From: a virus
Lineage: Duplodnaviria; Heunggongvirae; Uroviricota; Caudoviricetes
Direction: 5' to 3' (one strand)
DNA: 55,951 nucleotides
IMG/VR virus record: IMGVR_UViG_2690316248_000012
Location: 1 to 55,951 of that record
This document shows, in pieces, positions 32,556 to 55,951 of the stretch (its first letter is position 1; each line of letters begins with the position of its first letter). A program made the translations under genes and the position numbers. A model generated the notes under the pieces. It saw only the letters and a program-made list of their open reading frames with translations, was not told the DNA's origin and did no database searches.

Positions 32556-32906
32556 ATGAAAAAACTCACCTCCCTTATCGCAGACGTACAAAAAACCCGC
32601 CTGCGTGGCTGGCTTGTTGCCGCCGTACTGCTGCTCCTCATCATCGCGCTGGTCTCACCCCAGCAGTTGCCGGTGGTGGTGTACAAGCTCTCTCTCATCT
32701 CCCTCGCCGCCGTGCTCGGCTACTGGCTGGACCGCTCACTCTTCCCGAAGGCCCGTCCGGGGCAGTACCTGAAGCATGACGAGCGCCTCATGGCTGAGGG
32801 GCGCTGGCCCGTACAGACCGGCCTTCACCTGGTGTTTTCTGCTGCGTTAATCCGCCGTGCACTGATTGTTGCAGCTGTCTGTCTGGCTGTTGCGATGGGG
32901 CTTTAA
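32556..32906 (+). CDS. holin-like membrane protein
   Basis: 116 aa, three hydrophobic helices; first gene of the late operon, upstream of endolysin. Confidence 0.5.
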   Translation: MKKLTSLIADVQKTRLRGWLVAAVLLLLIIALVSPQQLPVVVYKLSLISLAAVLGYWLDRSLFPKARPGQYLKHDERLMAEGRWPVQTGLHLVFSAALIRRALIVAAVCLAVAMGL

Positions 32907-32908
32907 TC

Positions 32909-33643
32909 ATGAACTGGCCACAGAGCACCTGGATTGTATGCATGTCCCTGAAACTGGCTTTCGAAGCCTTTCTGGTCTTCATCAGAACCGAACGCCTGTC
33001 AGTCCGCGCCGGGACCTTTCTGGTTCATATGGCATGGGTATTCTTTGTCGCAATGTTGCTCTGGTGTGGCGGCTTCTTCAGTCAGGCCCGCGCAGCGCAG
33101 CCTCCGCAGGCTGCGCTGCAGTATCGCGATGATGTGATCCGTAATGCCCGGCTTGAATGGGGGCTGTCTGCGCCGGTGGCCGATTTCGCCGCGCAACTGC
33201 ATCAGGAAAGCGGCTGGCGGACTGATGCGGTCTCGCCGGTGGGCGCTCAGGGGCTGGCGCAGTTTATGCCCGCCACCGCTGACTGGATAAGCCAGTTGAT
33301 GCCGGCGTTGAGCAGTCGTGAGCCGTTTAATCCGGCATGGGCCATCCGGGCGCTGGTCAGCTATGACCGCTGGCTGTGGCAGCGCATCAGCGCCGCCAGT
33401 GACTGCGAGCGTATGGCCATGACACTGTCGGGCTATAACGGTGGTCTGGGTTGGGTACAACGGGACAGGCGGCTCGCATCACAGAAAGGTCTGGACAGCA
33501 CCCGCTGGTTCGGACATGTCGCCACGGTGAATGCCGGACGCAATGCTGCCAGCTGGCGGGAGAACCGCCATTATCCGCAGCGCATCCTGCACGAACTGGC
33601 CCCCCGTTATCTGACATGGGGGGGCGGCAGCTGTGTGGACTAA
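32909..33643 (+). CDS. endolysin, lytic transglycosylase (SLT domain), with N-terminal hydrophobic segment
   Basis: LHQESGWRTDAVSPVGAQGLAQFMPATA catalytic Glu-Ser motif; true start may be internal. Confidence 0.75.
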   Translation: MNWPQSTWIVCMSLKLAFEAFLVFIRTERLSVRAGTFLVHMAWVFFVAMLLWCGGFFSQARAAQPPQAALQYRDDVIRNARLEWGLSAPVADFAAQLHQESGWRTDAVSPVGAQGLAQFMPATADWISQLMPALSSREPFNPAWAIRALVSYDRWLWQRISAASDCERMAMTLSGYNGGLGWVQRDRRLASQKGLDSTRWFGHVATVNAGRNAASWRENRHYPQRILHELAPRYLTWGGGSCVD

Positions 33644-34286
33644 CCTGCTAAAAAATCTGCCGTGGCGCAGTCTGCTGCTGGCAGTGCTCATAAATGCTTT
33701 TCTGATTGGACTTTATTACCTGGGCTACAAAAGCGGGCATGAAAACGCCACGCGCGACGGCGATAAGGCGATCAGTGAGTTGCAGTCAGCATTCGACACA
33801 TACAAAACGGAGCAGGCAATGCTTGAGAACGCTGCATTGCGAGCATGGGCAAAACGGTATCAGGAGCAGGTGGCCGCTGGGCAGCAGGCTGAGGCCGGTT
33901 ATCTTGAGCAGATTGCTCAACTGGAGAGTCAGAACAAACAACTACAGGGGCAAATTAACGATGTCACACAGCGCTGGATTGATGAAAAAGGTAAGAGCCA
34001 TCCCATTGAGTGCGTGTTTACTCGCGGTTTCGTGCGCCAGTACAACGCCGCACTCGGATACGACAACGCATCCGTCGACACCGGTCATTCAGACTCAGTT
34101 GCCGCCGCTGGCACCGGCACTGGCGCAGCGACCGGGCAACCTGAAACCGCTGACGCCCGGTTACGCAATTCGGGTGTCTCCCAGCTTGACGTCCTTGCCA
34201 ACATCATCGACAACGCAGGGCAATGTCGTCGCTGGCGAAACCAGATAAACGCGCTACTGGATGAACGGGAAGGATTACAGAAATGA
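33633..34286 (+). CDS. i-spanin (Rz-like)
   Basis: 217 aa; N-terminal transmembrane helix and coiled coil; embedded lipoprotein ORF in +1 frame. Confidence 0.6.
   Translation: MWTNLLKNLPWRSLLLAVLINAFLIGLYYLGYKSGHENATRDGDKAISELQSAFDTYKTEQAMLENAALRAWAKRYQEQVAAGQQAEAGYLEQIAQLESQNKQLQGQINDVTQRWIDEKGKSHPIECVFTRGFVRQYNAALGYDNASVDTGHSDSVAAAGTGTGAATGQPETADARLRNSGVSQLDVLANIIDNAGQCRRWRNQINALLDEREGLQK
33982..34248 (+). CDS. o-spanin (Rz1-like lipoprotein) embedded in the i-spanin gene
   Basis: MKKVRAIPLSACLLAVSCAS signal/lipobox then Pro-rich region; ATG at 33982. Confidence 0.55.
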   Translation: MKKVRAIPLSACLLAVSCASTTPHSDTTTHPSTPVIQTQLPPLAPALAQRPGNLKPLTPGYAIRVSPSLTSLPTSSTTQGNVVAGETR

Positions 34287-34609
34287 CACTGCAGGTTGAA
34301 TTCTGGACGGTGGTGAGTTTTTTGCTCACCTTCATGGGGTTTGTGGGAGGGCTCGCCAAATGGTTGTTCAGTAAAACAGAAGAACGCCAGGCGGCACGAT
34401 TCGCCTCCCTTGAGCAGGCCCTGCAACAGTCCGCCTCCAACTGGGGCGAACTGGAAAAAGAATTTATGCGATTTAAAGCGGATTTACCGCTGAATTATGT
34501 CCGTCGCGAGGATTATATCCGTGGCCAGACAGTCATCGAGGCCAAACTGGACGCGCTCTACAACAAACTGGAAGTGGTACAGCAGTACCGCAATACCGGA
34601 GGTCAATAA
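34283..34609 (+). CDS. hypothetical membrane protein
   Basis: 108 aa, N-terminal hydrophobic helix. Confidence 0.4.
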   Translation: MTLQVEFWTVVSFLLTFMGFVGGLAKWLFSKTEERQAARFASLEQALQQSASNWGELEKEFMRFKADLPLNYVRREDYIRGQTVIEAKLDALYNKLEVVQQYRNTGGQ

Positions 34610-34920
34610 TGGTCGATATTACCCGGGTACGCCGCGAATCCCTGCGCTGGAGTCTGCTGGTTGCCCTGAACAAAACCCGCCCTTATACCGCCAGCGAGAC
34701 GCTGCTGCTGGAAGTGTCCCGCGCCATCTACCCGGACACCACGCAACTGGAGCTGCGCCGTGAGCTTGATTACCTGGCAGATCGCAAGATGGTGGAACTG
34801 GAGAAGAGGCCTTCCGGTGACTGGTTTGCCGATCTGAGTCGCCTTGGTGTGGATATTGTGGAATACACCGTGGAATGCGGCCCCGGTATTGCCCGCCCGG
34901 AAAAATACTGGAGTGAGTGA
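34609..34920 (+). CDS. hypothetical protein (Mu gp26 position)
   Basis: 103 aa preceding the small terminase-like gene. Confidence 0.4.
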   Translation: MVDITRVRRESLRWSLLVALNKTRPYTASETLLLEVSRAIYPDTTQLELRRELDYLADRKMVELEKRPSGDWFADLSRLGVDIVEYTVECGPGIARPEKYWSE

Positions 34921-34922
34921 TT

Positions 34923-35465
34923 ATGGGACGTCGCAGCAGCATTGATTCTCTGCCGAAGGAGGTCCGTCGCTGGCTTGAGCGGGCACTGACGGAGAATAAT
35001 TTCACCGGCTATGCAGAGCTTGAAAGTCTGTTGAAGGAAAAGGGGTACAGCATCACCCGCTCTTCCCTGCAGCGGTTTGGCTACAAAATGGAGCAGCAAC
35101 TGGCCCGGGTGCGGGCGGCAACCGAGGCAGCGCGTCTGCTTGCCCGGGAGGCCGGAGACGATCCTGATGACCGTTCAGCCGGGCTGATAACCCTCGTCCA
35201 GACCGAAATGACGGATATCCTGATGCGCCTGCAGGAGTCGCGGGAAAACGACGATCCCTTCGCCCGGGCAAAACTGCTGGCAACGGCTTCAAAAAATATA
35301 GCCACACTGACCCGCGCCTCGGTCAACCTCAAGCGCTATCAGGCAGAAGTCAGAGAGAGGGTTGAACGTGCTGCCGCTGCCGCCGAGAAAATTGCCCGTA
35401 AGGGCGGGCTCTCTGCGGAAGCCGTACAGGCACTGCGCCGGGAAATTCTGGGGGTGGTATCATGA
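34923..35465 (+). CDS. terminase small subunit-like DNA-binding protein (Mu gp27-like)
   Basis: Start set to the ATG at 34923 (ORF track begins at a GTG at 34917); directly upstream of the large terminase. Confidence 0.55.
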   Translation: MGRRSSIDSLPKEVRRWLERALTENNFTGYAELESLLKEKGYSITRSSLQRFGYKMEQQLARVRAATEAARLLAREAGDDPDDRSAGLITLVQTEMTDILMRLQESRENDDPFARAKLLATASKNIATLTRASVNLKRYQAEVRERVERAAAAAEKIARKGGLSAEAVQALRREILGVVS

Positions 35466-36985
35466 CGGAGCTGCCGCCGCACATTCCTGACACCGCGAGT
35501 TATAAGGCCCCTCCCGTTCTGTTGCCCTACCAGCAGCGCTGGGTGGCAGATGCCTCTCCGCTTAAGGTGATAGAAAAGAGCCGTCGTACCGGTATTACAT
35601 GGGCTGAGGCATCCGATAACGTACTGACCGCCGCCTCTTCTGCGCCAGCAGGCGGGATGAATGTGTATTACATCGCTTATAACCAGGACATGACCGTCGA
35701 ATACATTCAGGCGTGTGCGATGTGGGCACGGGCATTCAACTATGCGGCCAGTGAAATTGAAGAAGGATTCTGGGAAGAGGACGACGACGACAAACACATC
35801 AGGACTTACACCATCAAATTTCCTGACTCCGGCTTTCGTATTGTTGCGCTCTCCAGCCGCCCGTCTAACCTGCGTGGCCGTCAGGGTATTATTGTTATCG
35901 ACGAAGCGGCGTTCCATGAGCAACTGGACGAACTGCTGAAAGCGGCGCTGGCGATGCTTATCTGGGGGGGAAAGGTACGCGTTATCTCCACCCATGACGG
36001 TGACGACAATCCGTTCAATACGCTTATCGGGGATATCCGTGCCGGACGTCAGGGAGGCAGCGTACATCGCATCACTTTCCGGGAAGCCGTATCTGAAGGG
36101 CTGTTCCGGCGCGTTTGTCTGCGCACCGGGAAGGAATGGTCGGAGGCATCCGAGCAGGCCTGGATGGCGTCGGTGTACAAATTCTACGGTGCCGGTGCAT
36201 CCGAAGAGCTTGACTGTATTCCGGCCAACGGTGGCGGTGCCTGGCTGTCCCGAGCCCTGATAGAGTCCCGCATGTCCGCTGATACGCCGGTATTGCGTCT
36301 GACCTGCAAGGAAGGTTATGAACTGCTGTCTGATGAGGTTCGCTTCCGCGAGACGCAGGACTGGCTTGATGAGCATCTGAAACCATTACTGGAGGCGCTC
36401 CCCGCTGGTGCCCGCTCTTTTCTGGGGCGTGACTTTGGCCGTAGCGGGGATTTGTCGGTGGACTACCCGTTGTTGCAGGAGAAGAACCTGATACGACGCG
36501 TGCCATTCGTACTGGAGTTGCGTAACGTGCCGTTCAGGCAGCAGGAGCAAATCACCTGGTATCTGATGGATGGCCTGCCCGGTCTGCTGGGTGCAGCGTT
36601 TGATGCCCGTGGTAATGGTGCCTATCTGGCTGAATACGCCATGCAGCGCTACGGCTCCGGCCGGGTTCAGCAGGTGATGCCAACCGAAGGCTGGTACCGG
36701 GAGCATATGCCTCCGGTCAAAGCTGCACTGGAAGACGGTAACCTGGTGGACTTACCAAAGGATGAAGACACACTGGATGACCTGCGGGCCGTTCAGGTGG
36801 TGAACGGTGTCCCCCGCGTGCCGGAGCAACGCTCAAAAGCAAAGGCTGATGGTGGTAAACGTCACGGGGATTCAGCCATCGCACTGGCGCTGGCGTATTT
36901 CGCCAGCCGTGAAATTAACAAAGGGCCGGTGAAGGCAAGCTCACGACGTCGTCGTCAGGCGGCCCGTATGCTGGAGGGATTCTGA
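35462..36985 (+). CDS. terminase large subunit (Mu gp28-like)
   Basis: 507 aa; Walker-B-like IVIDEAAF; position before portal. Confidence 0.75.
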   Translation: MTELPPHIPDTASYKAPPVLLPYQQRWVADASPLKVIEKSRRTGITWAEASDNVLTAASSAPAGGMNVYYIAYNQDMTVEYIQACAMWARAFNYAASEIEEGFWEEDDDDKHIRTYTIKFPDSGFRIVALSSRPSNLRGRQGIIVIDEAAFHEQLDELLKAALAMLIWGGKVRVISTHDGDDNPFNTLIGDIRAGRQGGSVHRITFREAVSEGLFRRVCLRTGKEWSEASEQAWMASVYKFYGAGASEELDCIPANGGGAWLSRALIESRMSADTPVLRLTCKEGYELLSDEVRFRETQDWLDEHLKPLLEALPAGARSFLGRDFGRSGDLSVDYPLLQEKNLIRRVPFVLELRNVPFRQQEQITWYLMDGLPGLLGAAFDARGNGAYLAEYAMQRYGSGRVQQVMPTEGWYREHMPPVKAALEDGNLVDLPKDEDTLDDLRAVQVVNGVPRVPEQRSKAKADGGKRHGDSAIALALAYFASREINKGPVKASSRRRRQAARMLEGF

Positions 36986-38481
36986 TGGCAAAAGGTATCT
37001 GGGTTTCACCCGATGAGTTCGTGGCGTTTGCCGAACCCAAAAAGTCACTGACCGCGCAGATTGCCTCCCGCAGCCGCGCCATCGACTTTTACGCTCTGGG
37101 AATGTACCTGCCCAACCCTGATCCCATTCTCAAGGCTCAGGGACGGGATATCCGTATCTACCGCGAACTGCGCACCGACCCGCTGGTCGGGGGCTGTATC
37201 CGCAGACGTAAAGCAGCGGTCAAATCGCTGGAACGTGGACTGGAGCGCGGTCACGCTTCTGCCCGGGTCTTCCGTTTCATCCGCGACATGCTCGACGATC
37301 TGGATCTGTCCCGCATCATCGGTGAGATGAGCGATGCCGTGCTCTACGGGTATCAGCCCTGTGAAATCATGTGGGGCCGTTCGGTCAGGGCGTGGACGGT
37401 GACGGATATTGTCGGCAAACCGCCTGAGTGGTTTCAGTTTGATACGGACAACTGCCTGCGCTTCCGGGCTCGTGATGCGGGTGTGGAGGGTGAGCTGCTG
37501 TCACCGTCAAAATTCGTGGTGCCGGCACAGGATGCCTCGTATGACAATCCTTACGGTTTCCCGGACCTGTCCATGTGCTTCTGGCCGGTCGCCTTCAAGA
37601 AAGGCGGGATGAAATTCTGGCTCCGCTTTGCCGAAAAGTTTGGCTCCCCCTGGGTCATCGGTAAGCACCCGAGGGGTGCAAATGATGCAGAGATTGAAAA
37701 ACTGCTGGACTCCATGGAGCAGATGGTGGAGGACGCGGTGGCCGCCATCCCTGATGACAGCAGCATCGAACTCAAAGCAGCGGATGGCAAGGCGGACAGC
37801 AGCGAGGTATTCCGCGAGCTGATCACACTGTCACGCAGTGAGATCTCCATTGCATTACTCGGTCAGAATCAGACCACGGAAGCGAACAGTAACAAGGCCT
37901 CTGCACAGGCCGGGCTGGAGGTGACGGCTGATATCCGCGATGCGGATGCGGACATCATTCAGGCGGCAGTGAATCAGGTCATAAGAACGGTGGTCACCCT
38001 GAACTTCGGCGATGTGCCGTGTCCGGTCTGGGCCATGTGGGAACAGGAGGCCATTGATGACACCCGTGCCACCCGCGATGAAAAACTCACCCGGGCGGGT
38101 CTGCGTCTGACCCCGCAATACTTCAAGCGTGAGTACCAGCTGCAGGACGGCGATATTGACGAGACACCACCGTCAGAATGCGAGAAGAACATGCTGCCGC
38201 TGTCATTTGCCGAGGCGATTGATGCCGATATTCAGGCTCAGCAGCAGCTTGACGACGCGCTGGACATTCTGATGAACGGAGGTGTGTTAAATGGCACGCT
38301 GGAACCCGTCCTGGCACCTCTGTTCAGACGGGTCGAAAACGGGGTTAACCCGTCTGAGCTGCTGGGCGAACTGGCGGAGCTCTACCCTCAGATGAACACG
38401 GACGATCTGCAGGAGCGGCTGGCCCGCATTCTCTTTGTGGCAAATATCTGGGGGCATCTGCATGAGCGTGACAACGGCTGA
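36985..38481 (+). CDS. portal protein (Mu gp29-like)
   Basis: 498 aa following the terminase. Confidence 0.7.
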   Translation: MAKGIWVSPDEFVAFAEPKKSLTAQIASRSRAIDFYALGMYLPNPDPILKAQGRDIRIYRELRTDPLVGGCIRRRKAAVKSLERGLERGHASARVFRFIRDMLDDLDLSRIIGEMSDAVLYGYQPCEIMWGRSVRAWTVTDIVGKPPEWFQFDTDNCLRFRARDAGVEGELLSPSKFVVPAQDASYDNPYGFPDLSMCFWPVAFKKGGMKFWLRFAEKFGSPWVIGKHPRGANDAEIEKLLDSMEQMVEDAVAAIPDDSSIELKAADGKADSSEVFRELITLSRSEISIALLGQNQTTEANSNKASAQAGLEVTADIRDADADIIQAAVNQVIRTVVTLNFGDVPCPVWAMWEQEAIDDTRATRDEKLTRAGLRLTPQYFKREYQLQDGDIDETPPSECEKNMLPLSFAEAIDADIQAQQQLDDALDILMNGGVLNGTLEPVLAPLFRRVENGVNPSELLGELAELYPQMNTDDLQERLARILFVANIWGHLHERDNG

Positions 38482-39283
38482 ACTGGCGTACTGCATGACG
38501 CTTCCCCCGAAGCGGGCAGTCAGCTACCTGAAGTCCAAAGGGTATCAGATTACCTGGGACCAGGAAGAAATGTGGCAGGAAGCCCATGCCCGCGCCTTTA
38601 CCGTCGCTAAAGTGACCCGCCTGGATATTCTGGAAGATATTCGCGGGACACTGCAGCAGGCTGTTGATGAAGGAAAAACCGATCGCTGGTTCCGGCAGGA
38701 GCTGGAGCCGGCGCTGAAGCGCAGGGGATGGTGGGGACCGCGTGACACGACTGACCCGGTAACGGGTGAGCCGGTCACCATTCAGCAGGGCAGTCCGTGG
38801 CGGCTCGATACCATCTTTCGCACCAATATGTCCGTACTCTACAGCGCCGGTCGTTGGGCGGAGCAGATGGAAAACGTCGACGACAGGCCGTACTGGATGT
38901 ATACCGGCATCAACGACAGCCATACCCGCAGGAGCCATCTGGCGCTGCATGGTCTGGTGCTGCGCTGGGATGACCCGTTCTGGCAGGCATTTTACCCGCC
39001 GAACGGCTGGCGCTGCCGCTGTAGTGTAATTGCCCTGAGTGCGGCGGATGTACGTGCCCGTGGCCTGAAGGTTATCAGCTCCGGCTCTGCCATGGGCCAG
39101 GAACTGAAACTGGTCTCAGAGAAAACCGGCGAAATGCGGAACGTGGCCACCTTTAATACCGGCACCACGAAGGTGACCACCGACGTCGGCTGGTCTTATG
39201 CACCGGGGGCAGCATACCGTCCCGACCTGGCCCGCTATCAGGGTACGCTTCAGACACTGGCACAACAGGAACTGAGAGGATAA
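38462..39283 (+). CDS. head morphogenesis protein (Mu F / SPP1 gp7 family)
   Basis: FYPPNGWRCRCSV motif characteristic of the family. Confidence 0.8.
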   Translation: MSVTTAELAYCMTLPPKRAVSYLKSKGYQITWDQEEMWQEAHARAFTVAKVTRLDILEDIRGTLQQAVDEGKTDRWFRQELEPALKRRGWWGPRDTTDPVTGEPVTIQQGSPWRLDTIFRTNMSVLYSAGRWAEQMENVDDRPYWMYTGINDSHTRRSHLALHGLVLRWDDPFWQAFYPPNGWRCRCSVIALSAADVRARGLKVISSGSAMGQELKLVSEKTGEMRNVATFNTGTTKVTTDVGWSYAPGAAYRPDLARYQGTLQTLAQQELRG

Positions 39284-39285
39284 CA

Positions 39286-39744
39286 ATGGCTTCCGATAAC
39301 CTGGTCAGTATCACCATTAATGATAAATCCCTGCGCCGGAGCCTCCGTGCGCTGGATCTTGCTGCCACAGACCTGGAGCCCGCGATGCGCAAAATCGCCG
39401 GAACCCTGCTGGCGGAAACACAGTTTAACTTTCTTGATGAGGGGCGTCCGGGGTGGATGCCCTCGCTGGCAGCGGAAGAACGTGACGGGCAGACACTGCA
39501 GGATACCGGGCGTCTGATGGGGTCAGTATCAACCGACCATGACGACCGGCAGGCTGTTGTGGGGACCAACGTTGTTTACGGTGCCATTCACCAGTTCGGG
39601 GGTAAAACGGGGCGTAATGAGTCTGTTGAACTTCCGGCCCGCCCGTTCCTGCCGGTGACGGGGGATGGAGAACTACAGCCTGAAGTGGTAATCCCCATCC
39701 TCGATACCATTGTCCGCCATCTTGAATCAGCGGCCCGTCGCTGA
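39286..39744 (+). CDS. virion morphogenesis protein (Mu G-like)
   Basis: 152 aa, position after F. Confidence 0.55.
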   Translation: MASDNLVSITINDKSLRRSLRALDLAATDLEPAMRKIAGTLLAETQFNFLDEGRPGWMPSLAAEERDGQTLQDTGRLMGSVSTDHDDRQAVVGTNVVYGAIHQFGGKTGRNESVELPARPFLPVTGDGELQPEVVIPILDTIVRHLESAARR

Positions 39745-41074: not shown

Positions 41075-41088
41075 TTTAAGGAGAGAGC

Positions 41089-42042: not shown

Positions 42043-42051
42043 GGAGGCGTT

Positions 42052-46290: not shown

Positions 46291-46365
46291 TACAGACAGC
46301 CGCCAGTAGCGGCTGTTCTGCGTTATCCCCTCACGTCTTTTCACCTTCCCCGGAGGTTAACCACT

Positions 46366-49300
46366 ATGTCGGGACAGTTTTCAGTCGGCGTTGTTATCGG
46401 CGGGATGATTGGCAGCACATTCCGTTCTGCAATGAGCGGTACCCGCCGTGCGCTTGATTCCCTGAGCGATACCTCACGCCGCCTGCAGGAACGTCAGAAC
46501 GCTTTAACCCGTGCAACAGAACGTTATGGTCAACTGGGTTCTTCCCGGATGCAGCATCTCAACAGCGAGCTGCTGCGGGTAAGCCGCACCATGGAGCAAA
46601 TTGAGCGCCAGCAGCGCCGTCTGTCAGCGGCATCCGCTACCAGTGATGCGCTGAAAGCTAACCGCATGGCGCTGTATGGTCAGGGGATTGAAGCGTATGG
46701 CATGGCACAGACTGTTTATCATACGGTTTCCCCTGCCGTTCAGCAGTCCATGTCTTTTCAGGACAAAATGATTGATATGTCGATCACCGCAAAATATGAC
46801 AATAAAACGCGGGATGCACTTGCCGGACAGATAAAAGGCTGGGCGCTTAAATACAATCAGTATCAGGATGAGCTGCAGGAGGCGGTGGGTTCACTCATCA
46901 GCGACAATATTGATAATGTGTCAGATATCGGTTTTCTGATGCCGGATATTGCCCGCGCGGCAACGGCAACACGCACGTCTGCTCAGGACTGGGCAAAAGT
47001 GGCCGCAGTCTGGCAAAACTCCCTGAAAGGTGCGGCCAGAGATTTTGGTGCCGTTCAGAATATTATGGCTTATGCCGGTGACCAGGGGTCATTTGAAATC
47101 CCGGATCAGGTCAAGTGGATGCAGTCCCTGGCCCCAATGATGGCGGGTCTTGCCAGTGGAAAAGAGGCTGTTGCTGAAATCGGGGCCAGTCTCCAGATAG
47201 CAAAAATCGGTGCAGGTTCCACCGACGAAGCAGCCAATAATTTTAAAAACTTTCTTACCAAAATTTTTGCCCGCGATACTCAGAAACAGTTTGCTGATCT
47301 GGGTATTGATTTGCAGGGATCTATTGCGAGTTATAAAGCTGCGGGGATCTCTCCGATTGAAGGGATGTTGAGTGTTATAGAACGTTACCTCAATGCCAAA
47401 AGCCCCGAAGCGCTGGCCGGCTTCAAATCAGCCATGAAAATAAAGAATGATACGGCAAGAGATGAGGCACTTCAGGCTCTGGCGAAAAACTTTGGTCTGG
47501 GCGATATGTTCGCGGATATGCAGGTCATGGCATTTATCCGCCCGATGCTGGCCAACATGGACAGATATCGAGAGATCCGTGCCGGTGCTCTCAGGGCTGC
47601 GGATAACGATTTGCTTGCCAGTGCTTATGATCAGCGGCTGAAATCTCCCCTTGAAGCCACTAAAACACTTATGGTCAGCAGTCGCGATCTGGCAATTACG
47701 CTGGGCGATCAATTAGCTCCATCTTTTATTTCTCTGACTCAGGAACTGCTCCCACTCATTCAGGGGACAAAACACTGGGTAGCGACTCACCCGCAATTTG
47801 TCAGTGGGGCTTTTAAGCTCATCAGTGCGCTCCTTGCGATTAAGATAGCGACTATTGGTCTCAAACTGGGGCTGAATCTCCTTATTTCCCCCTTTGTGAA
47901 CGTCTGGAAAACTACTGTTTTACTCCGGACCAACTGGCATCGACTGACTACCGCACTCGGAGAAGGTGGCAAATTACGCTGGCTTGTCACTGGATTCAGC
48001 CGACTGACCAGCGGAGGACTGAAACTCAGCAAAGTTCTGGCGGGCAGCCTCGTTCGCGGTTTTATGAGCGCTGCACGTGCCGTTCTCTGGATTGGGCGAG
48101 CGCTGATGATGAATCCCATCGGTCTCGTTATCACCGCTGTCGCGACAGCAGCTTACCTTATCTACCGCAACTGGGGGGCTGTCAGTGGTTGGTTTAAACA
48201 GCGCTGGGCTGACATTCAGGAAGCCTTTAACGGCGGCATTGTGGGAATTGGTAAGTTGCTGATTAACTGGTCGCCGGCAGGCCTGCTCTATAAAGCCTTT
48301 GCGGCTGCGCTGAAATATTTCGGCGTTGCTCTGCCGGCAAAGTTCACCGACTTCGGTGGCCATCTTATCGACGGTCTGATTAACGGTATCAAAAGCAAAT
48401 GGGGGTCGCTCAAATCCAGTGTAACCGGAATGGGTGACAGCATCAGTAGCTGGTTTAAACAGCGCTGGGCTGACATTCAGGAAGCCTTTAACGGCGGCAT
48501 TGTGGGAATTGGTAAGTTGCTGATTAACTGGTCGCCGGCAGGCCTGCTCTATAAAGCCTTTGCGGCTGCGCTGAAATATTTCGGCGTTGCTCTGCCGGCA
48601 AAGTTCACCGACTTCGGTGGCCATCTTATCGACGGTCTGATTAACGGTATCAAAAACAAATGGGGGTCGCTCAAATCCAGTGTAACCGGAATGGGTGACA
48701 GCATCAGTAGCTGGTTTAAACAGTGCTGGGCTGACATTCAGGAAGCCTTTAACGGCGGTATCGCGGGAACTGGTAAGCTGCTGATTAACTGGTCGCCGGC
48801 AGGTCTGCTCTATAAAGCCTTTGCAGCTGCGCTGAAATATCTTGGTGTTGATCTGCCGGCAAAGTTCACCGACTTCGGTGGCCATCTTGTCGACGGTCTG
48901 ATTAACGGTATCAAAAACAAATGGGAGTCGCTCAAATCCAGTGTAACCGGAATGGGTGACAGCATCAGTGGCTGGTTCAGCGAAAAGCTGGGCATTCATT
49001 CGCCGAGCCGCGTGTTTATGGGCTTTGGTGACAATATCGCGCAGGGGGCCGCCATTGGCCTGCAGCGGACCACTCCGCTTGCAGCTCTGGCCGGGCAGCG
49101 AATGGCCAGTGAACTGCTCCCCAGAATGCCCGTGAGCATTCAGGGGCCAGAAATACGGGATAACACTTCAGGTGTTCGCTTCAGTATGCCGTTGCCCGAT
49201 ATCAATGGGTTTATGTCGTCTGCTAAAAATGCGATCGGAGCCGTAATCAATAGTTTGTCTTCCATGCCCGTTATTCCGCTCTCCACCCGGGCATCGATTT

Positions 49301-49578
49301 TACCAGGGCAACGTCTGGCAAATGAGATGACACCGGATGTTCCCCGTATCCCCTCGCCTGAAATCCTGGCTGCCGGATATTCAGGCCGTGGTGCAGCTGC
49401 AACCGGCGGTGGAACGTCTGGTGGTATCCAGGTCAGCTTTAATCCTCAGTTTTTCCTCAATGGCAGGGAAACCACAGCGCCTGCAGGACTGACTGGTGCC
49501 CTGAATATGAGTCTGCATGAGCTGGAAAAAATGCTGGAGCGTCTGCTGGCTCAGAAACAACGTAAGGAGTACCGCTGA
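46366..49578 (+). CDS. tail tape measure protein with three tandem 87-aa repeats
   Basis: 1070 aa; coiled-coil N-terminus; triplicated SGWFKQRWADIQEAFNGG... unit. Confidence 0.85.
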   Translation: MSGQFSVGVVIGGMIGSTFRSAMSGTRRALDSLSDTSRRLQERQNALTRATERYGQLGSSRMQHLNSELLRVSRTMEQIERQQRRLSAASATSDALKANRMALYGQGIEAYGMAQTVYHTVSPAVQQSMSFQDKMIDMSITAKYDNKTRDALAGQIKGWALKYNQYQDELQEAVGSLISDNIDNVSDIGFLMPDIARAATATRTSAQDWAKVAAVWQNSLKGAARDFGAVQNIMAYAGDQGSFEIPDQVKWMQSLAPMMAGLASGKEAVAEIGASLQIAKIGAGSTDEAANNFKNFLTKIFARDTQKQFADLGIDLQGSIASYKAAGISPIEGMLSVIERYLNAKSPEALAGFKSAMKIKNDTARDEALQALAKNFGLGDMFADMQVMAFIRPMLANMDRYREIRAGALRAADNDLLASAYDQRLKSPLEATKTLMVSSRDLAITLGDQLAPSFISLTQELLPLIQGTKHWVATHPQFVSGAFKLISALLAIKIATIGLKLGLNLLISPFVNVWKTTVLLRTNWHRLTTALGEGGKLRWLVTGFSRLTSGGLKLSKVLAGSLVRGFMSAARAVLWIGRALMMNPIGLVITAVATAAYLIYRNWGAVSGWFKQRWADIQEAFNGGIVGIGKLLINWSPAGLLYKAFAAALKYFGVALPAKFTDFGGHLIDGLINGIKSKWGSLKSSVTGMGDSISSWFKQRWADIQEAFNGGIVGIGKLLINWSPAGLLYKAFAAALKYFGVALPAKFTDFGGHLIDGLINGIKNKWGSLKSSVTGMGDSISSWFKQCWADIQEAFNGGIAGTGKLLINWSPAGLLYKAFAAALKYLGVDLPAKFTDFGGHLVDGLINGIKNKWESLKSSVTGMGDSISGWFSEKLGIHSPSRVFMGFGDNIAQGAAIGLQRTTPLAALAGQRMASELLPRMPVSIQGPEIRDNTSGVRFSMPLPDINGFMSSAKNAIGAVINSLSSMPVIPLSTRASILPGQRLANEMTPDVPRIPSPEILAAGYSGRGAAATGGGTSGGIQVSFNPQFFLNGRETTAPAGLTGALNMSLHELEKMLERLLAQKQRKEYR
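48181..48963. repeat. three near-identical tandem copies of a 261-bp unit inside the tape measure gene
   Basis: Unit boundaries at about 48181, 48442 and 48703; antisense ORFs at 48288, 48549 and 48810 confirm the 261-nt period. Confidence 0.85.
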
Positions 49579-50462
49579 TGTTTGCCGTACTGGGTGATAT
49601 TGAGTTTGAGCTGATTACCTACTGGGACGGCTTCGAGGCCACGTTCGGCGTCGATTATGCGGAGCATGCCCGCATCGGGGGTAAGCCTGGCCTGCAGTTC
49701 GTCGGCGACAGGCTGGACGAAATCCAGATAACTCTGGTTTTCCATCAGCATTATTGTGTACCCGATGTGGAGCTGGCGAGACTGCGAACAGCCATGAAAG
49801 CCCATCAGGCACTGGCGCTGGTCTTCGGCAACGGTGACTATCGCGGCTGGTTCGTGATTACCGATGTGACTGCAACCAGCGAGCAGACTGACAGTACCGG
49901 CAACGTGCTGGCTGTCAGTGCCACCGTGTCTCTCCGGGAATACACCGGTGACCCGAAAAATCCTCTGCAACCACCGGCAATACGCACGAAGCTCCCGGGT
50001 GTCGGGGCGGTCTCCGGTGCCATTCCTTCACCTTCCGGGGTGGCGCAGTTCATCCGCAACGGCGTCAACTATGCGAAACAGGCGCAGTCTGTACTCCAGA
50101 CCACTATCAGCGCCGTTCGGGTGACACAGAAAATGAAGGATAACCCCGTTGTCGCACTGACCCGTGTGCCGGGGCTGATGAGCGGACTGGGTAATATCTC
50201 CGGGGCTCTGGGGAAAAGTGTTCCGGCGTTTAACGCACTCTCTGAATCCATGCCCGATGCCATCAGTCTGGCCAGAACAGCCAGCGAAGCAGCCACGTAT
50301 GTACAGCAGGCACAGTCTGCGCTGAGTGGTGTGGACAAAAGAAATATTGCAGGTGCTCTGGATACCGTTTCCGGGCAGCTTAACGCCGTCGGAACAGCAT
50401 TCAACCGCATGTCTCCGGGATTAAGTGCAATGGCCGCCAGAATACTGACGAGGAGTGTGTGA
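49578..50462 (+). CDS. tail protein (gpU-like N-terminus; Mu N position)
   Basis: 294 aa; start overlaps tape measure stop; N-terminus resembles the gpU-like protein at 4262-4747. Confidence 0.5.
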   Translation: MFAVLGDIEFELITYWDGFEATFGVDYAEHARIGGKPGLQFVGDRLDEIQITLVFHQHYCVPDVELARLRTAMKAHQALALVFGNGDYRGWFVITDVTATSEQTDSTGNVLAVSATVSLREYTGDPKNPLQPPAIRTKLPGVGAVSGAIPSPSGVAQFIRNGVNYAKQAQSVLQTTISAVRVTQKMKDNPVVALTRVPGLMSGLGNISGALGKSVPAFNALSESMPDAISLARTASEAATYVQQAQSALSGVDKRNIAGALDTVSGQLNAVGTAFNRMSPGLSAMAARILTRSV

Positions 50463-50674
50463 TGTTTCTTGAACATGTTACCCGTGACGGAGAGCGCTGG
50501 GATTCGCTGGCATGGCAGTACTACGGTGACCCGCTGGGCTATCCCCGGATTATTGCCGCCAATCCGCACGTGGCCATCACGCCGGTGCTGCCCTCCGGGC
50601 TGTTGTTACTGATCCCGGTGATTGAGGCTGAAGAAGCCCGTACAGAAGAGGATATTGCCCCATGGCTGAGATAA
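50459..50674 (+). CDS. tail protein X-like (P2 gpX family)
   Basis: 71 aa; WQYYGDP...IIAANP...VLP pattern matches P2 gpX by eye. Confidence 0.55.
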   Translation: MMFLEHVTRDGERWDSLAWQYYGDPLGYPRIIAANPHVAITPVLPSGLLLLIPVIEAEEARTEEDIAPWLR

Positions 50675-51834
50675 ACAGCACTGCGCAAGTCACATCAGCG
50701 TTAACCGGCGTCAGCGATGTGCTGACACCGGTGTTCACTCTGTGGTATCTGCAGAAAAACATCACCTCTGATATCGCGCCTTATGTCACCCGTGTGACCT
50801 GGAGCGATAACATCAAAAATGAGTCCGATACCATTGAGGTGGAGCTGGACGACACCGATGGCCGCTGGCTGGATAAGTGGTATCCGGGCAAGGGTGACAC
50901 GCTGACGCTGAAAATGGGCTATCAGGACGAGAAGCTGCTGTCCTGCGGTACGTTCTCTATAGACGAGATCGAAGTGAGTTCGCCCGCTTCCGTTGTTTCT
51001 ATCCGTGGGGTGGCCACCTCGGTTAACAGTGCCCTGCGGACTAAAACCAGTCGTGGTTTTGAGAACACCACGCTGGCAGCTGTTGCGGGGCGGATTGCCA
51101 GAAAGCACCGGCTGAAACTGGTGGGCAGCATTGAGTCCATCAGAATCGACCGGGTGACCCAGTATGCTGAAACCGACGTGGGTTTTCTGCGCCGGCTGGC
51201 CAGCGAGTATGGTTATGCAGTGAAAGTGGTCAGTGACCAGCTGATTTTTTCTCATCTGGCCACACTGCGCAGTCAGGAGCCGGTCAGGCAGTTAAAACCG
51301 CAGGATGTGGCCCGCTTTTCCCTGCGTGACACCATCAACCGGGTCTATAAATCTGCAAAGGTAAAACACCAGAAAAGCAGCAGTAAAAAACTGATCGTCT
51401 ACGAAGCTGATGGTGGTACCCGTGAAAGCGACAAAAAGCTCAAAGGTGGTAAGGTTACCAGCGCTGACTCACTTAAAGTTAACAGCCGCGTCAGCGACCC
51501 GGACAGTGCCCGGATTAAAGCGGATTCAGCACTGGCCAGACATAACGAATACCAGCAGAACGGCTCCCTGACGCTGACGGGAACACCTCAACTGACAGCA
51601 GGCAACAAAATTGAACTGGTGGGTTTTGGGCAGTTATCCGGGCCATGGCTCATAACCACTGCCCGCCATGCGTTTGACCGTAACAGCGGCTACACCACAG
51701 AGCTGGAAGTGGCACGGGGGCCGATCACACAGGGCAAGGCGAAGAAAGGTAAAAAAATCGGCAAAACCCGGATGCTGACCATCTATAAACCGGACGGCAG
51801 CACGTCCACAGTAATAAGAGAGAAGAAAAAATGA
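50662..51834 (+). CDS. gpD-like tail protein (Mu P position)
   Basis: 390 aa; paralogous to the P2-like D at 3165-4265. Confidence 0.7.
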   Translation: MAEINSTAQVTSALTGVSDVLTPVFTLWYLQKNITSDIAPYVTRVTWSDNIKNESDTIEVELDDTDGRWLDKWYPGKGDTLTLKMGYQDEKLLSCGTFSIDEIEVSSPASVVSIRGVATSVNSALRTKTSRGFENTTLAAVAGRIARKHRLKLVGSIESIRIDRVTQYAETDVGFLRRLASEYGYAVKVVSDQLIFSHLATLRSQEPVRQLKPQDVARFSLRDTINRVYKSAKVKHQKSSSKKLIVYEADGGTRESDKKLKGGKVTSADSLKVNSRVSDPDSARIKADSALARHNEYQQNGSLTLTGTPQLTAGNKIELVGFGQLSGPWLITTARHAFDRNSGYTTELEVARGPITQGKAKKGKKIGKTRMLTIYKPDGSTSTVIREKKK

Positions 51835-52427
51835 CTGGTGTCACTCGTCAGGTCGGTACGGTCAGTGCCGTTGATGCCGACAGGGTTCAGGCCCGCGTTC
51901 GTCTGCCTGAATGCGATAACCTGCGCACAAACTGGCTTAACGTGCTGCAGCGCAATACCCAGGATAACAAAGATTACTGGCTCCCTGACGTGGGGGAGCA
52001 GGTTGAGGTGCTGCTCGATGCCAACGGCGAGGATGGTGTTATTCTGGGCGCGGTGTATTCAGACGTCGATAAACCACCGTTCAGTGACAAAAATATCCGG
52101 GGAACCCGGTTTGCTGATGGTGCAGAGTACAGCTACAACCGGAAGACGCACACTCTGATCATCCGGGGCGGCATTGAGCATATTGTCATTGAGTGTGGTG
52201 CTGATGTGGTATTGAAAACACAGAAAGCCACGATTGACGCACCGGAAACCGAACTTACCGGAGATCTGCGTGTCAGGGGTAAGCTGATTTACGAAGGAGG
52301 CATGGCGGGTTCTGGTGGTGAAGGTGTTACCGCGACCATCCATGGCAATATCGAGATTAAAGGGAATGCCCATGCCACGGGCAGTATGTTGTCTGATGGC
52401 GAAAACTCCAGCCACCACTCCCACTGA
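51831..52427 (+). CDS. baseplate spike/assembly protein (gpV-like)
   Basis: 198 aa; alignable by eye with 15465-16043. Confidence 0.7.
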   Translation: MTGVTRQVGTVSAVDADRVQARVRLPECDNLRTNWLNVLQRNTQDNKDYWLPDVGEQVEVLLDANGEDGVILGAVYSDVDKPPFSDKNIRGTRFADGAEYSYNRKTHTLIIRGGIEHIVIECGADVVLKTQKATIDAPETELTGDLRVRGKLIYEGGMAGSGGEGVTATIHGNIEIKGNAHATGSMLSDGENSSHHSH

Positions 52428-52481
52428 GCTTTTTAAACGCCTTTAATATCAGCGTTCCCGCACGGGGGCAATACTGCCCCC

Positions 52482-52829
52482 ATGAAAACAACCTCAGTAT
52501 TCTGGCAACCGACCCTGCAGGCTCCCGGCGAAATTGTCCGGGGGCTGGATGATATCCGGCAGGCGATTCAAATTATCCTGCGGACTCCCCGCGGCAGCGA
52601 CCCGCATCGCCCGGAGTTCGGCAGCAATCTGCATCTTTATATCGACTGGCCTGTAGACCGGGCCATTCCGCATGTGGTGCGCGAATCCGTCGATGCCATC
52701 CGACGCTGGGAGCCCCGCTGCCAGCTTATGTCAGTTAAACCCGCCGTCGACGGCGAACATCTTACGCTCCGGGTGAGCTGGAAAGGCTCAGACGGACAGA
52801 CCCGGACTCAGGAGTTGCTATGGCGCTGA
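52482..52829 (+). CDS. baseplate wedge protein (GPW/gp25-like)
   Basis: 115 aa; paralogous to 15109-15468. Confidence 0.7.
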   Translation: MKTTSVFWQPTLQAPGEIVRGLDDIRQAIQIILRTPRGSDPHRPEFGSNLHLYIDWPVDRAIPHVVRESVDAIRRWEPRCQLMSVKPAVDGEHLTLRVSWKGSDGQTRTQELLWR

Positions 52830-53923
52830 CAGAACCCGATTTTATTGAACGCGATGCCGACAAAATCACGGCAGAAATGATTGCGAAGTATGAAGCGGAT
52901 ACCGGCAAAACGCTGTACCCGGCACAGGCAGAACGTCTGCTGATTGATCTGTGGGCCTATCGCGAAATGCTGGTCAGGGTTGCGGTACAGGAGGCAGCAA
53001 AGCAGAATCTGGTCGCCTTTTCACGAGAGCCGATGATTGATTACCTCGGAGAACTGGTTGGTGTATACCGCCTTGCCGCGCAGCCTGCCACCACCACACT
53101 TCAGTTCTCTGTGGATGAGGCACTGACCATTGATGTGCTGATCCCGGCAGGCACCCGCGTCAGCGCTTCCGACAGCGTTATTTTTGCCACCGATACAGAT
53201 GTGGTACTGAAGGCCGGATTGCTGCTGGTCAATGTCACGTCCACCTGTACCGAACCCGGTACCGCTGGTAACGGCTGGCAACCTGCGCAGGTCAGTCAGT
53301 TACTCGATGAGATTGATAACGTCGACCTGCTGGTGAGCAATCTGACGGCCAGTTCCGGCGGTTCAGAACAGGAAGACGATGACAGGCTCCGGGAGCGTAT
53401 CAGGCTGGCCCCGGAGTCATTCACCAATGCCGGAAGCCGTGGCGCATACCGCTTTCATGCCATGCAGGCCCATCCCAACATTGTCGATGTTGCTGTGCTT
53501 TCCCCGGTTCCCGGGACCGTAGATCTGTATCCGCTGCTCAGTACCGGTCTGCCGGACGGCGGTGTTCTCACGCTGGTAGAGAGTTTCTGCTCTGATGAGA
53601 AAGTCAGGCCACTCACTGATACAGTGCGGGCTAAAACACCAGTGAAGGTGGATTACACCATTGAAGCCAGGATTACGATCTATCGTGATCAGGATGCCAG
53701 GTCTGTAAAAGATGCCGCTAACAGCGCCATACAGAACTGGGTGGCATCACGTGCCGCCACGCTGGGGCGTGATATTGTCCCCAGCCAGATTATCAGTGCA
53801 TTGTCCGTTTCCGGGGTGTACCAGGTTGAACTGGTGACACCGGCACTGAGGGTGGTGGCAGAAAACGAATGGGCAAACTGTACGGCGATCACACTTAACA
53901 TGAGTGGAGTGTCTGATGACTGA
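52820..53923 (+). CDS. baseplate protein J-like
   Basis: 367 aa following the gpW-like gene. Confidence 0.7.
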   Translation: MALTEPDFIERDADKITAEMIAKYEADTGKTLYPAQAERLLIDLWAYREMLVRVAVQEAAKQNLVAFSREPMIDYLGELVGVYRLAAQPATTTLQFSVDEALTIDVLIPAGTRVSASDSVIFATDTDVVLKAGLLLVNVTSTCTEPGTAGNGWQPAQVSQLLDEIDNVDLLVSNLTASSGGSEQEDDDRLRERIRLAPESFTNAGSRGAYRFHAMQAHPNIVDVAVLSPVPGTVDLYPLLSTGLPDGGVLTLVESFCSDEKVRPLTDTVRAKTPVKVDYTIEARITIYRDQDARSVKDAANSAIQNWVASRAATLGRDIVPSQIISALSVSGVYQVELVTPALRVVAENEWANCTAITLNMSGVSDD

Positions 53924-54494
53924 GCCATTACAACTCCCGCCACCGCTTGAGGGTGATATCAGTCTCAGGACGCTGGGAAGACTGGCAGGGCGGCTGGATA
54001 ACATCGACCTGAGCGTACTGATGGTCTTTCTCGTCGATATCGTCGACAGTTCTGCGCTGCCATGGCTGGGCGAGCAGTTCTCACTGTCTGGCGATGGCTG
54101 GGAGCTGGCGGAATCGGACGATGTTCGCCGCATGCTTATAAAAGCAGCCATCGAACTACACCGGTATAAAGGGACGCCGTGGTCAATCCGGGAAGTTATC
54201 CGCCGTTTTGGCTTTGGTGAAGTGGATCTGATTGAAGGCACAGGTCGTCTCAGTTACGACGGCAATCGCAGCTATAACGGACTGTTTGTTCATGGAGATG
54301 CAGCCGCCTGGGCGGTTTATCGCGTTATTCTGAAACAGCCCATTACTAACGATCAGGCCGCGATGCTGCGTCAGACGCTCGCTGCATTTGCACCGGCCCG
54401 CTGCCATCTGGCCAGCCTGGAGTATCAGTCTGTGGCCATTCGCTATAACAATACCGCCATCCATGATGGCAGTTATAACCACGGGAGCAGTTGA
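53904..54494 (+). CDS. baseplate/tail protein gpI-like
   Basis: 196 aa between J-like and the fibre gene. Confidence 0.6.
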   Translation: MECLMTEPLQLPPPLEGDISLRTLGRLAGRLDNIDLSVLMVFLVDIVDSSALPWLGEQFSLSGDGWELAESDDVRRMLIKAAIELHRYKGTPWSIREVIRRFGFGEVDLIEGTGRLSYDGNRSYNGLFVHGDAAAWAVYRVILKQPITNDQAAMLRQTLAAFAPARCHLASLEYQSVAIRYNNTAIHDGSYNHGSS

Positions 54495-54496
54495 TT

Positions 54497-55951
54497 ATGG
54501 GAAACCTGAATGAAACAGAAAAGTGGGAAGAAAAAATCTATCAACTGGAGACATCAGATCCGGTTCTGGGTGGTGCTGACGGGATATCAAATCGAGCCCC
54601 CCGGCAACTGGCAAACAGGACGAAATGGCTGAAGAAAAAAACGGAGGAAGCCGCACAGTCACTGGCTGAACACGTACGTTCCCGTAACCACCCGGACGCG
54701 ACACTGACAGCTAAGGGGTTCACCCAACTGAGCAGTGCCACCAACAGCACCTCTGAAACGCTGGCCGCCACACCAAAGGCCGTCAAGGCTGCATATGACC
54801 TAGCTGCCGGCAAGGCCCCCGTCAGCCACACTCACCCGTGGAGTCAGATAACGGGAGTGCCTGCTGCCTCGCTGACGGCAAAAGGCACCGTACAACTGAG
54901 CAGCGCCACGGACAGTCAATCAGAAACTGAGGCTGCCACGCCGAAGGCTGTGAAAATCGCGTATGATCTGGCCCGGGGAAAATACACAGCCCAGGATGCA
55001 ACAACGACCCGTAAAGGGATCGTACAACTGAGCAGTGCCACCAACAGCACCTCTGAAACGCTGGCCGCCACACCAAAGGCCGTCAAGGCTGCATATGACC
55101 TGGCTGCCGGCAAGGCCCCCGTCAGCCACACTCACCCGTGGAGTCAGATAACGGGAGTGCCTGCTGCCTCGCTGACGGCAAAAGGCACCATACAATTGAG
55201 CAGTGCCATCAACAGCACGTCTGAAATACTGGCCGCCACACCGAAAGCGGTCAAGGCTGCATACGATCTGGCAAACGGAAAACAACCGGCAGATGCCACG
55301 CTCACTGCTCTGGCAGGACTTGCCACTGCAGCAGATCGGTTGCCTTATTTTACCGGAGCAGACCGCGCAGCGCTGGCAACCCTTACAGCTATTGGTCGCG
55401 CTATTATCGCTAAGGGCAGTATAAAAGATGTCCTCAATTACCTTGGTTTAGGAGAAGGCTCGGCGCTACCCGTTGGTGTGCCTGTTCCGTGGCCCACCGC
55501 CACACCGCCAGCAGGCTGGTTAAAGTGCGACGGGCGCGCCTTTACAAAAGAACAATATCCTGTTCTGGCCAGAGTCTACCCGACCCTCCGTCTTCCCGAT
55601 TTACGCGGTGAGTTTATCCGTGGATGGGACGACGGGCGCAAAGTTGATACAGGACGTTCATTGCTAAGTGGTCAGGCTGCAACATTTATTCGTACAGCTT
55701 TGCAGGATTATTACGGTTACGATCTGAATACTAATGTCAAAGTAGGTATCGCTTTTGCTACTGCTGATTCTGTTATAACCGTTGGAAACCCAGCTAATCC
55801 TAAAGCAGGAAATAATAGCGATTATGTTCCTGCATCAGCAGATAACTCTATAACGGGTATTCAAAGGACAGCGGAGGATAATTTTACCGGGGCATGGATA
55901 TCAATGCGCCCCCGCAATGTTGCGTTTAATTACATCGTAAGGGCCGCATAA
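54497..55951 (+). CDS. tail fibre protein with internal repeats and crossover-site-containing C-terminus
   Basis: Repeated TAKGxxQLSSATNSTSET / ATPKAVKAAYDLA motifs; C-terminal GLGEGSALPVGVPVPWP...NVAFNYIVRAA matches the alternative fibre segment at 10798-11194. Confidence 0.8.
   Translation: MGNLNETEKWEEKIYQLETSDPVLGGADGISNRAPRQLANRTKWLKKKTEEAAQSLAEHVRSRNHPDATLTAKGFTQLSSATNSTSETLAATPKAVKAAYDLAAGKAPVSHTHPWSQITGVPAASLTAKGTVQLSSATDSQSETEAATPKAVKIAYDLARGKYTAQDATTTRKGIVQLSSATNSTSETLAATPKAVKAAYDLAAGKAPVSHTHPWSQITGVPAASLTAKGTIQLSSAINSTSEILAATPKAVKAAYDLANGKQPADATLTALAGLATAADRLPYFTGADRAALATLTAIGRAIIAKGSIKDVLNYLGLGEGSALPVGVPVPWPTATPPAGWLKCDGRAFTKEQYPVLARVYPTLRLPDLRGEFIRGWDDGRKVDTGRSLLSGQAATFIRTALQDYYGYDLNTNVKVGIAFATADSVITVGNPANPKAGNNSDYVPASADNSITGIQRTAEDNFTGAWISMRPRNVAFNYIVRAA
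54728..55190. repeat. two near-identical ~160-bp copies spaced 300 bp apart inside the tail fibre gene
   Basis: ctgagcagtgccaccaacagcacctctgaaacgctggccgccacaccaaaggccgtcaaggctgcatatgacct... at about 54728 and 55028. Confidence 0.8.
55443..55458. repeat. crossover-like site (ttggtttaggagaagg) inside the tail fibre gene
   Basis: Same core as the inverted repeats at 10779-10793 and 12558-12572. Confidence 0.6.

Follow-up and report, generated by a model that had tools for sequence, protein, structure and literature searches.

The window analysed here, the whole 55,951-nucleotide stretch of the IMG/VR virus record IMGVR_UViG_2690316248_000012, carries host genes at its far left, minus-strand genes from ~2.9 to 32.4 kb and plus-strand genes from position 32556 to its end. 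Its composition was taken from the open reading frame (ORF) listing and identities were assigned by Pfam and PHROGs profile searches; a tRNA scan of the window found no tRNA genes. The initial annotation had placed phage late genes on the plus strand from 32556 and a transposase/early operon on the minus strand, and both databases bore this arrangement out, with the early operon at ~20.3–29.9 kb. Besides the contractile-tail genes of the plus-strand block, a second contractile-tail gene set occupies 3165–19205 on the minus strand. The host gene to the left is ybjL, the chromosomal site marker of a P2-like prophage, and its product is identical over all 561 amino acids to that of Escherichia coli AR_0085, so the host is E. 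coli. As developed below, the locus very probably consists of two independent E. coli myovirus prophages, one of the BcepMu type nested in one of the P2 type (Table 1).

The left-hand element is a P2-like prophage, of which the window holds the right arm. Its genes are ordered ogr, D, U, T, E/E', FII, FI, an invertase with an invertible fibre segment, H, I, J, W and V, followed by an OLD-like cargo gene, S, R, lysB and a 5'-truncated lysA, and Pfam matches were obtained for Ogr_Delta, GPD, GpU, tube, sheath, Tail_P2_I, Baseplate_J, Phage_base_V, GpR, Phage_tail_S and LysA. Between positions 6500 and 19990 the window is ~95% identical at the nucleotide level to Escherichia phages Cartapus (NC_070909) and 500465-1 (NC_049342), both of which share the order ogr-D-U-T-E-FII-FI-...-H-I-J-W-V-S-R-lysB-lysA. 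The order typical of P2-like phages, ogr-D-U-T-E-FII-FI / G-H-I-J-W-V / S-R-lysC-lysB-lysA, together with high identity to classified members, places window 2856–19990 in this group. In contrast to Cartapus and 500465-1, the window carries the right arm only, with lysA cut at codon 32, and in contrast to the P2-like relatives 500465-1 and AR_0085 it has an additional OLD-like gene between V and S.

The remainder of the window, from 19991 onward, belongs to a transposable prophage of the BcepMu type. In a tblastn comparison, 33 of 43 window ORFs matched BcepMu (NC_005882) at 30–76% identity, in the same order and on the same relative strands. BcepMu carries genes 1–13, 15 and 16 (Mor/C, GemA, the transposition ATPase, the transposase and regulators) on its bottom strand, and the repressor gene 17 together with the lysis, head and tail genes on its top strand. 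The early operon of the window reads, in order of transcription, a Ner-like gene, a helix-turn-helix gene, DUF3102, transposase, ATPase, Gam, DUF2786, GemA, Mor/C and a phrog_12870 gene, with transposase and ATPase on the strand and in the order of BcepMu gp09 and gp08. Upstream of this operon, a promoter scan returned a sigma-70-like early promoter, TTGATA-17-AATAAT (29964–29936, minus strand), with 10 of 12 matches. The two divergent clusters, a Tn552/IS1604-type (rve) transposase adjacent to an AAA+ protein rather than MuA, and a P2-related tail cassette in order alongside Mu-like terminase, portal and F head genes are all features of the BcepMu-like viruses, for which a divergent organisation in two clusters has been described explicitly (Lavigne et al. 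2009, PMC2771037).

The likeness to BcepMu extends to a lysogeny switch at the interface of the two clusters, a Mor/C gene adjoining the left end, a left end beginning with TG, a Tn552/rve-type transposase with an ExeA-like ATPase, the holin/SLT endolysin/Rz set, Mu-like gp27–G head genes, and P2-related tail genes in the order sheath, tube, T, U, X, D, V, W, J, I, H. The two phages are nevertheless distinct. Only 9.9 of 36 kb aligns, at 68% nucleotide identity; the accessory region holds a Dam methylase and phrog_3787 here and gp18–20 in BcepMu; and the window's early operon contains Gam and DUF2786 genes. The right ends of the enterobacterial relatives are without a homologue of the acyltransferase gene 53, and they have a serine invertase along with an invertible fibre segment, which BcepMu is reported to lack (PMC2771037).

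Nearly the whole of the element was found again in other enterobacterial sequences. Window positions 35507–55575 and 21139–31000 are 98.4% and 98.9% identical, respectively, to Escherichia phage PhiKM (PQ738613), positions 19991–55208 are 98–99% identical to the complete prophage of E. coli STIN_95, and the late region has an 86% match in Klebsiella phage KP12 clone 2. PhiKM, STIN_95 and AR_0085 share 98–99% nucleotide identity with the window phage over nearly all of its length, as well as its gene order and strands, and STIN_95 and AR_0085 also share its terminal sequences. The three differ from it in small accessory-region indels, in the number of tape measure repeats and in their insertion sites; in addition, the fibre segment of STIN_95 lies in the opposite orientation, and the leftmost 1.1 kb of PhiKM diverges and bears a variant end (TGATTAGACTTGAG...). 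The PhiKM record, a 'partial genome', is permuted, with a host-like fragment (20200–20575, annotated as an Fe2+ transporter permease) between the right and left ends, as would be expected if host DNA, packaged or flanking, had entered the assembly. Packaging of random host DNA at both virion genome ends, a mark of replicative transposition, is a further trait of the BcepMu-like group, of which the PhiKM record may be an indirect hint. By the ICTV rule, members of a genus share a nucleotide identity of 70% or more across the genome; the window phage lies below this value with respect to the type species of Bcepmuvirus, although the National Center for Biotechnology Information (NCBI) nonetheless files PhiKM under that genus.

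The initial annotation had assumed that early and late genes are co-linear in Mu-type genomes. This holds for Mu itself (NC_000929), whose early, middle and late genes are all annotated as rightward, but not for the BcepMu group, to which the window prophage belongs. Homology between Mu and the window phage is confined to Gam (62%), GemA, Mor/C, the large terminase (49%), portal, F and G. Mu also resembles the enterobacterial relatives of the window phage in having TG...CA ends and an invertible fibre segment with its invertase; replication by transposition would be a further shared property, and the four motif copies described below parallel Mu's four late promoters. In contrast, the tail proteins of Mu are mostly unrelated in sequence, MuA and MuB gave no match to the transposition proteins of the window, and the target duplication is 5 bp in Mu and 6 bp in near-identical relatives of the window phage. 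The window phage thus has neither the co-linear rightward genes nor the MuA/MuB proteins that characterise Muvirus. KS10, for its part, is a different, more scrambled transposable phage, and the right end of BcepMu has been described as P2-like (PMC2628397).

The boundary between the two prophages is base-precise: P2 homology extends up to 19990, and the phage end begins at 19991 (TGATCAG...; TGATCAGACATGAGATAAATG...). The truncated lysA to its left is 97% identical to residues 33–125 of the 500465-1 LysA homologue, and the apparent start of the lysA ORF, at 20001, is contributed by the end of the inserted phage. Two GAGATAAAT repeats in the left end, at 20002 and 20025, are putative transposase-binding sites. 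In STIN_95 the identical left end splits gcl, with the right end reading ...GCGCATCA and the 6-bp duplication GTCAGG on both sides, and in AR_0085 it abuts unrelated DNA, with the 6-bp duplication AATAAT. TG...CA termini and 6-bp duplications were seen in near-identical prophages, and the window itself includes the left TG end only, its right end lying outside. In many E. coli genomes the match begins at window 19981–19991, next to unrelated flanking genes (rstB, ptsP, flagellin, fadM), and ten more right-end contexts, taken from genomes with the exact gpJ protein, were all different. The insertion sites of the relatives are accordingly dispersed (gcl, rstB, ptsP, fliC, fadM, gsp genes, a lambdoid prophage and others), and the fact that the same end adjoins different genes across genomes indicates transposition into effectively random targets. 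The chimeric 98-amino-acid ORF created at the junction has an exact match in an independent assembly of short reads (Logan ERR9839861), where it lies on a 32-kb contig, and is present in two samples.

The genome of AR_0085 offers a counterpart with both flanks in view. There the lysB/lysC region of another P2-like prophage at ybjL is interrupted by the same phage, oriented as in the window, and beyond the right end of the inserted phage lie the P2 lysozyme, holin, X, L, M, N, O, P and Q genes, the replication genes and the integrase. Because the complete prophage in STIN_95 measures 39.07 kb, the right end of the window phage is expected at ~59.06 kb, ~3.1 kb past the edge of the window. We predict that this end would read ...CGCGCGGCGCATCA, followed by the 6-bp duplication GCCAGT and then the 5' end of lysA, and that the P2 head genes would be found to the right of the inserted phage, beyond the window edge. 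The parts that would complete a P2-like genome, namely capsid, terminase and portal (Q P O N M L), cos and int/C/cox/A/B, are predicted to lie there too, as they do in AR_0085. The locus had been described as having one head and two tail modules; the two tail sets stand, and the single head is probably an effect of where the window ends.

We identified candidate late promoters in the inserted phage. The pattern TAA-N6-TTAAWATC, drawn from three copies noticed upstream of late blocks, has exactly four copies in the window, all on the plus strand, all intergenic and each preceding a late gene block. With at most one mismatch, six matches were obtained against 0.95 expected, and all 100 shuffles stayed below six. 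Within the motif lies a -10-like TAAAAT or TAATAT, and a sigma-70 scan flagged no -35 partner for copy 1. Related motifs occur in BcepMu at 11486, 18813 and 30775 (the last between gp48 and gp49), syntenic with copies 1, 2 and 4; at the remaining site, upstream of gp41, the resemblance is weaker. Mu has four late promoters that depend on C, an activator of the Mor/C family, and we suggest that the four motifs of the window are candidate late promoters dependent on its own Mor/C-family activator. A motif shared by E. coli and Burkholderia members of the group at syntenic positions would ease testing of the Mor regulon.

Taken together, the genes and motifs suggest how the locus may have arisen and how the inserted phage may work. 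A P2-like prophage occupies its usual ybjL-adjacent site, and a BcepMu-type phage, ~39 kb when complete, would have transposed into its lysA. In the inserted phage, the CI-type repressor gene facing the leftward early promoter would constitute the lysogeny switch. Transcription of the early operon would proceed leftward via the transposase and ATPase genes and end with the Mor/C activator beside the left end. This activator would act in trans on the late promoters at 32487, 39887, 45804 and 52434, from which the lysis/packaging, head, tail and baseplate genes would be transcribed. With activation in trans, the early and late blocks would need no co-linearity.

Table 1. Features of the 55,951-nucleotide window. 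Late genes of the BcepMu-type prophage were called from Pfam and PHROGs.
Feature	Position	Strand	Basis or remark
ybjL (aspartate:alanine antiporter), host gene	935–2620	+	561 amino acids, 100% identical to E. coli AR_0085 ybjL
P2-like (Peduoviridae) prophage, right arm	2856–19990	-	Nucleotide identity and Pfam
Truncated lysA, insertion target	19705–19990	-	Pfam LysA; first 32 of 125 codons absent
BcepMu-type transposable prophage	19991 to beyond 55951	early -, late +	
Left end of BcepMu-type prophage	19991–20040	+	Starts 5'-TG
Early operon, leftward	20352–29888	-	Pfam, PHROGs
Mor/C-family activator	21099–21497	-	Pfam
GemA	21469–21918	-	Pfam
Gam	24299–24829	-	Pfam
AAA_22 transposition ATPase	25129–26322	-	Pfam; 59% identical to BcepMu gp08
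rve/Tn552-type transposase	26306–28075	-	Pfam rve; 68% identical to BcepMu gp09
Small Ner-like DNA-binding gene	29700–29888	-	
Lysogeny switch	29936–30338	promoter -, repressor +	Position as BcepMu genes 16/17
CI-type repressor gene	29982–30338	+	Pfam HTH_3, Phage_CI_repr; divergent from early promoter
Accessory region between repressor and lysis genes	30455–32423	-	Opposed to late genes
Dam-type adenine methylase	30455–31219	-	Pfam MethyltransfD12; PADLOC MTase_II, E = 6e-112
247-amino-acid protein, phrog_3787	within 30455–32423	-	PHROGs family without known function
Candidate late promoter motif, copy 1	32487–32503	+	Upstream of lysis/packaging genes; -10-like TAAAAT
Lysis, packaging and head-assembly block	32556–39744	+	Collinear with BcepMu gp21–gp31, 45–62% identity (Rz ~30%)
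Holin	32556–32906	+	
SLT endolysin	32909–33643	+	
Rz-like spanin	33633–34286	+	
Mu gp27-like small terminase	34917–35465	+	
Large terminase	35462–36985	+	
Mu-type portal	36985–38481	+	
Mu F	38435–39283	+	
G	39286–39744	+	
Candidate late promoter motif, copy 2	39887–39903	+	Upstream of head protease gene
Head and head-tail joining block (protease/scaffold, major head protein, DUF2190, gp36-like, gp37-like)	39959–43553	+	Collinear with BcepMu gp32–gp38
Head protease/scaffold	39959–41074	+	PHROGs head maturation protease
Major head protein	41089–42042	+	PHROGs
Tail block in P2-related families (including chaperone and X)	43543–52427	+	Pfam
Sheath	43543–44970	+	76% identical to BcepMu
Tube	44970–45491	+	67% identical to BcepMu
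Candidate late promoter motif, copy 3	45804–45820	+	Upstream of tail assembly chaperone and tape measure
Tape measure	46366–49578	+	
GpU-like	49578–50462	+	
D	50662–51834	+	
V	51831–52427	+	
Candidate late promoter motif, copy 4	52434–52450	+	V–W gap; absent from pattern derivation
W	52482–52829	+	Pfam
J	52820–53923	+	Pfam
I	53904–54494	+	Pfam
Tail fibre, cut by window end	54491 to beyond 55951	+	Pfam

The opposed orientation of early and late genes had originally been read as an inversion of the late module. A Mu-like prophage with its early or late block inverted, as a lineage-specific event and perhaps still flipping, would place the Gam, GemA and Mor/C homologues on the opposite strand to terminase, portal, F and G, as observed here and unlike the situation in Mu. 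We nevertheless consider such a rearrangement very improbable. The transposase, being of the Tn552/rve type, 68% identical to BcepMu gp09 and without a match to MuA, is not that of a rearranged Mu. No inverted repeats of 22 nt or longer bracket the early block at 20–32.5 kb, where only short imperfect chance pairs were seen, and the two serine invertases, here and in the relatives, serve fibre segments only. Above all, the divergent layout is published (PMC2771037) and common to BcepMu, PhiKM, KP12, STIN_95 and AR_0085, that is, five of five. The initial annotation had itself named reference phages with the same arrangement as the observation that would speak against an inversion, and because BcepMu and its relatives share the layout, it is ancestral to the phage group. 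The other suggestion had been that two superimposed prophages had exchanged segments. Two prophages are indeed present, but they are nested rather than superimposed. A chimera formed by exchange of tail or head segments would be in keeping with the adjacency of the two prophages, with the same Pfam families in both tail sets and with the similarity of the fibre tips, yet each element keeps the gene order of its own relatives from end to end, and the only boundary is that at 19990/19991. The D, V, W, J and I paralogues are real, as had been claimed, but their protein identity is 27–38% (23–38% over the tail paralogues as a whole), and a nucleotide comparison of the P2 part with the transposable-phage part returned only 217 nt at 74% (10776–10992 against 55440–55656) and 45 nt at 82%. 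Both tracts lie in the fibre-tip cassettes, and similarity there is usual for mosaic host-range cassettes. With tail paralogues this distant and no shared DNA bar the fibre-tip stretches, there has been no exchange between the tail sets. BcepMu, on its own in Burkholderia, already possesses the P2-like tail cassette, and the two D/V/W/J/I sets arise because the BcepMu-type cassette is itself built from P2-related families; we therefore regard a recombinant origin as highly improbable.

Several observations weigh against a simple insertion of one prophage into the other. The right end and its flank are outside the window, and for this genome both the duplication and the lysA/P2 head continuation are predictions. 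The predicted right junction (GGCGCATCAGCCAGTACCGGAAA) was unmatched in a one-genome-per-species collection, which omits the source genome, and the known left junction was likewise unmatched there. The P2-lysA/phage junction was absent from complete E. coli genomes, among which the best coverage of a 4-kb junction query was 66% (AR_0085, a different insertion), and the late-promoter assignment consists of sequence motifs only. Moreover, the P2 left arm might have been lost through a deletion or rearrangement beside the inserted phage. Transposable phages, as known from Mu, generate adjacent deletions, and with the right flank beyond the window the P2-like region might be a true remnant whose head and early genes were lost through the phage or through an adjacent deletion or inversion. 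We think this unlikely, given that the left junction is shaped like a simple insertion, that the right-arm genes all have the lengths of those in intact P2-like relatives, and that the AR_0085 analogue keeps both P2 arms together with its 6-bp duplication. Prophage repeats often misassemble, and the absence of the junction from complete genomes would also fit a misjoin at ~19990 between prophages from elsewhere in the genome. However, the terminal TG of the phage is exactly where the break occurs, which is also the case in genuine insertions, and the 98-amino-acid junction ORF lies on an independent Logan contig, which makes a misjoin extremely improbable.

The insertion of the BcepMu-type phage into lysA would have consequences for the P2-like prophage. 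In P2, lysB, R and S belong to the P_O late operon. With ~39 kb now splitting this operon, lysB, R and S are cut off from their promoter, and the P2-like prophage is probably disabled and would no longer form phage.

The inserted phage is a common prophage, its transposition genes being present at 709 places in 640 of 5426 complete E. coli genomes (~12%). One relative adjoins lambdoid tail genes. Nested prophages are commonplace, and the present case is known in kind and ordinary in instance. For the reading of other genomes, divergent early and late blocks in a 'Mu-like' prophage identify a member of the BcepMu group rather than signalling a rearrangement, and a duplicated P2-type tail cassette alongside it can simply be a second prophage. 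The AR_0085 insertion lies ~760 bp from that of the window in equivalent coordinates, in the same orientation and at the same ybjL site, in a different P2-like prophage. Two independent insertions, in lysA here and in lysB/lysC in AR_0085, might suggest that BcepMu-type phages preferentially land in resident P2-like lysis operons and so disable a competitor. We give this idea little credence, since with hundreds of insertions in E. coli and a window chosen for looking odd, chance is the likelier explanation.

The OLD-like gene of the P2-like prophage (16219–18177, minus strand) sits between the genes for gpV and gpS, has a GC content of ~34% and encodes a protein of 652 amino acids with an AAA_15/AAA_21 ATPase domain and an OLD-like TOPRIM domain. 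Its top PADLOC matches are AriA (1e-21) and Old (2e-11), and the gene is probably anti-phage cargo of the OLD-family or PARIS-like kind, carried in a variable spot of P2. The same prophage has its own serine invertase at 10145–10717, and 27-nt inverted repeats (10767–10793 and 12557–12583) next to it bound the invertible fibre and fibre-assembly segment. Two accessory proteins, of 247 and 210 amino acids, had no PADLOC or Pfam match and fall into PHROGs families without known function; in the accessory region of the BcepMu-type prophage an indel relative to STIN_95 lies at ~31675.

The fibre tip of the BcepMu-type prophage, from ~55443, lies in an invertible segment: window 55443–55951 matches STIN_95 41253–41761 at 98%, in reverse. 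In complete relatives the fibre gene is followed by fibre-assembly genes and a Resolvase-type invertase and then by the right end. Because the fibre tip is reversed with respect to STIN_95, enterobacterial members carry an invertible host-range segment like the G segment of Mu. The tape measure gene contains three tandem 261-nt repeats (48182–48964) that are 93–100% identical. Tape measure proteins of the relatives measure 961, 983, 992 or 1070 amino acids, so the repeat number, and presumably tail length with it, varies. The Logan short-read contig seems to break at these repeats. Finally, a palindrome (…CTTTATAAAGGCTTTAC…) at 39788–39825, between G and the head protease gene, is conserved in BcepMu at ~18740–18770 and may act as a terminator or as a regulatory hairpin; in Mu the equivalent G/I position holds the strong gyrase site, annotated at 17879 in NC_000929.

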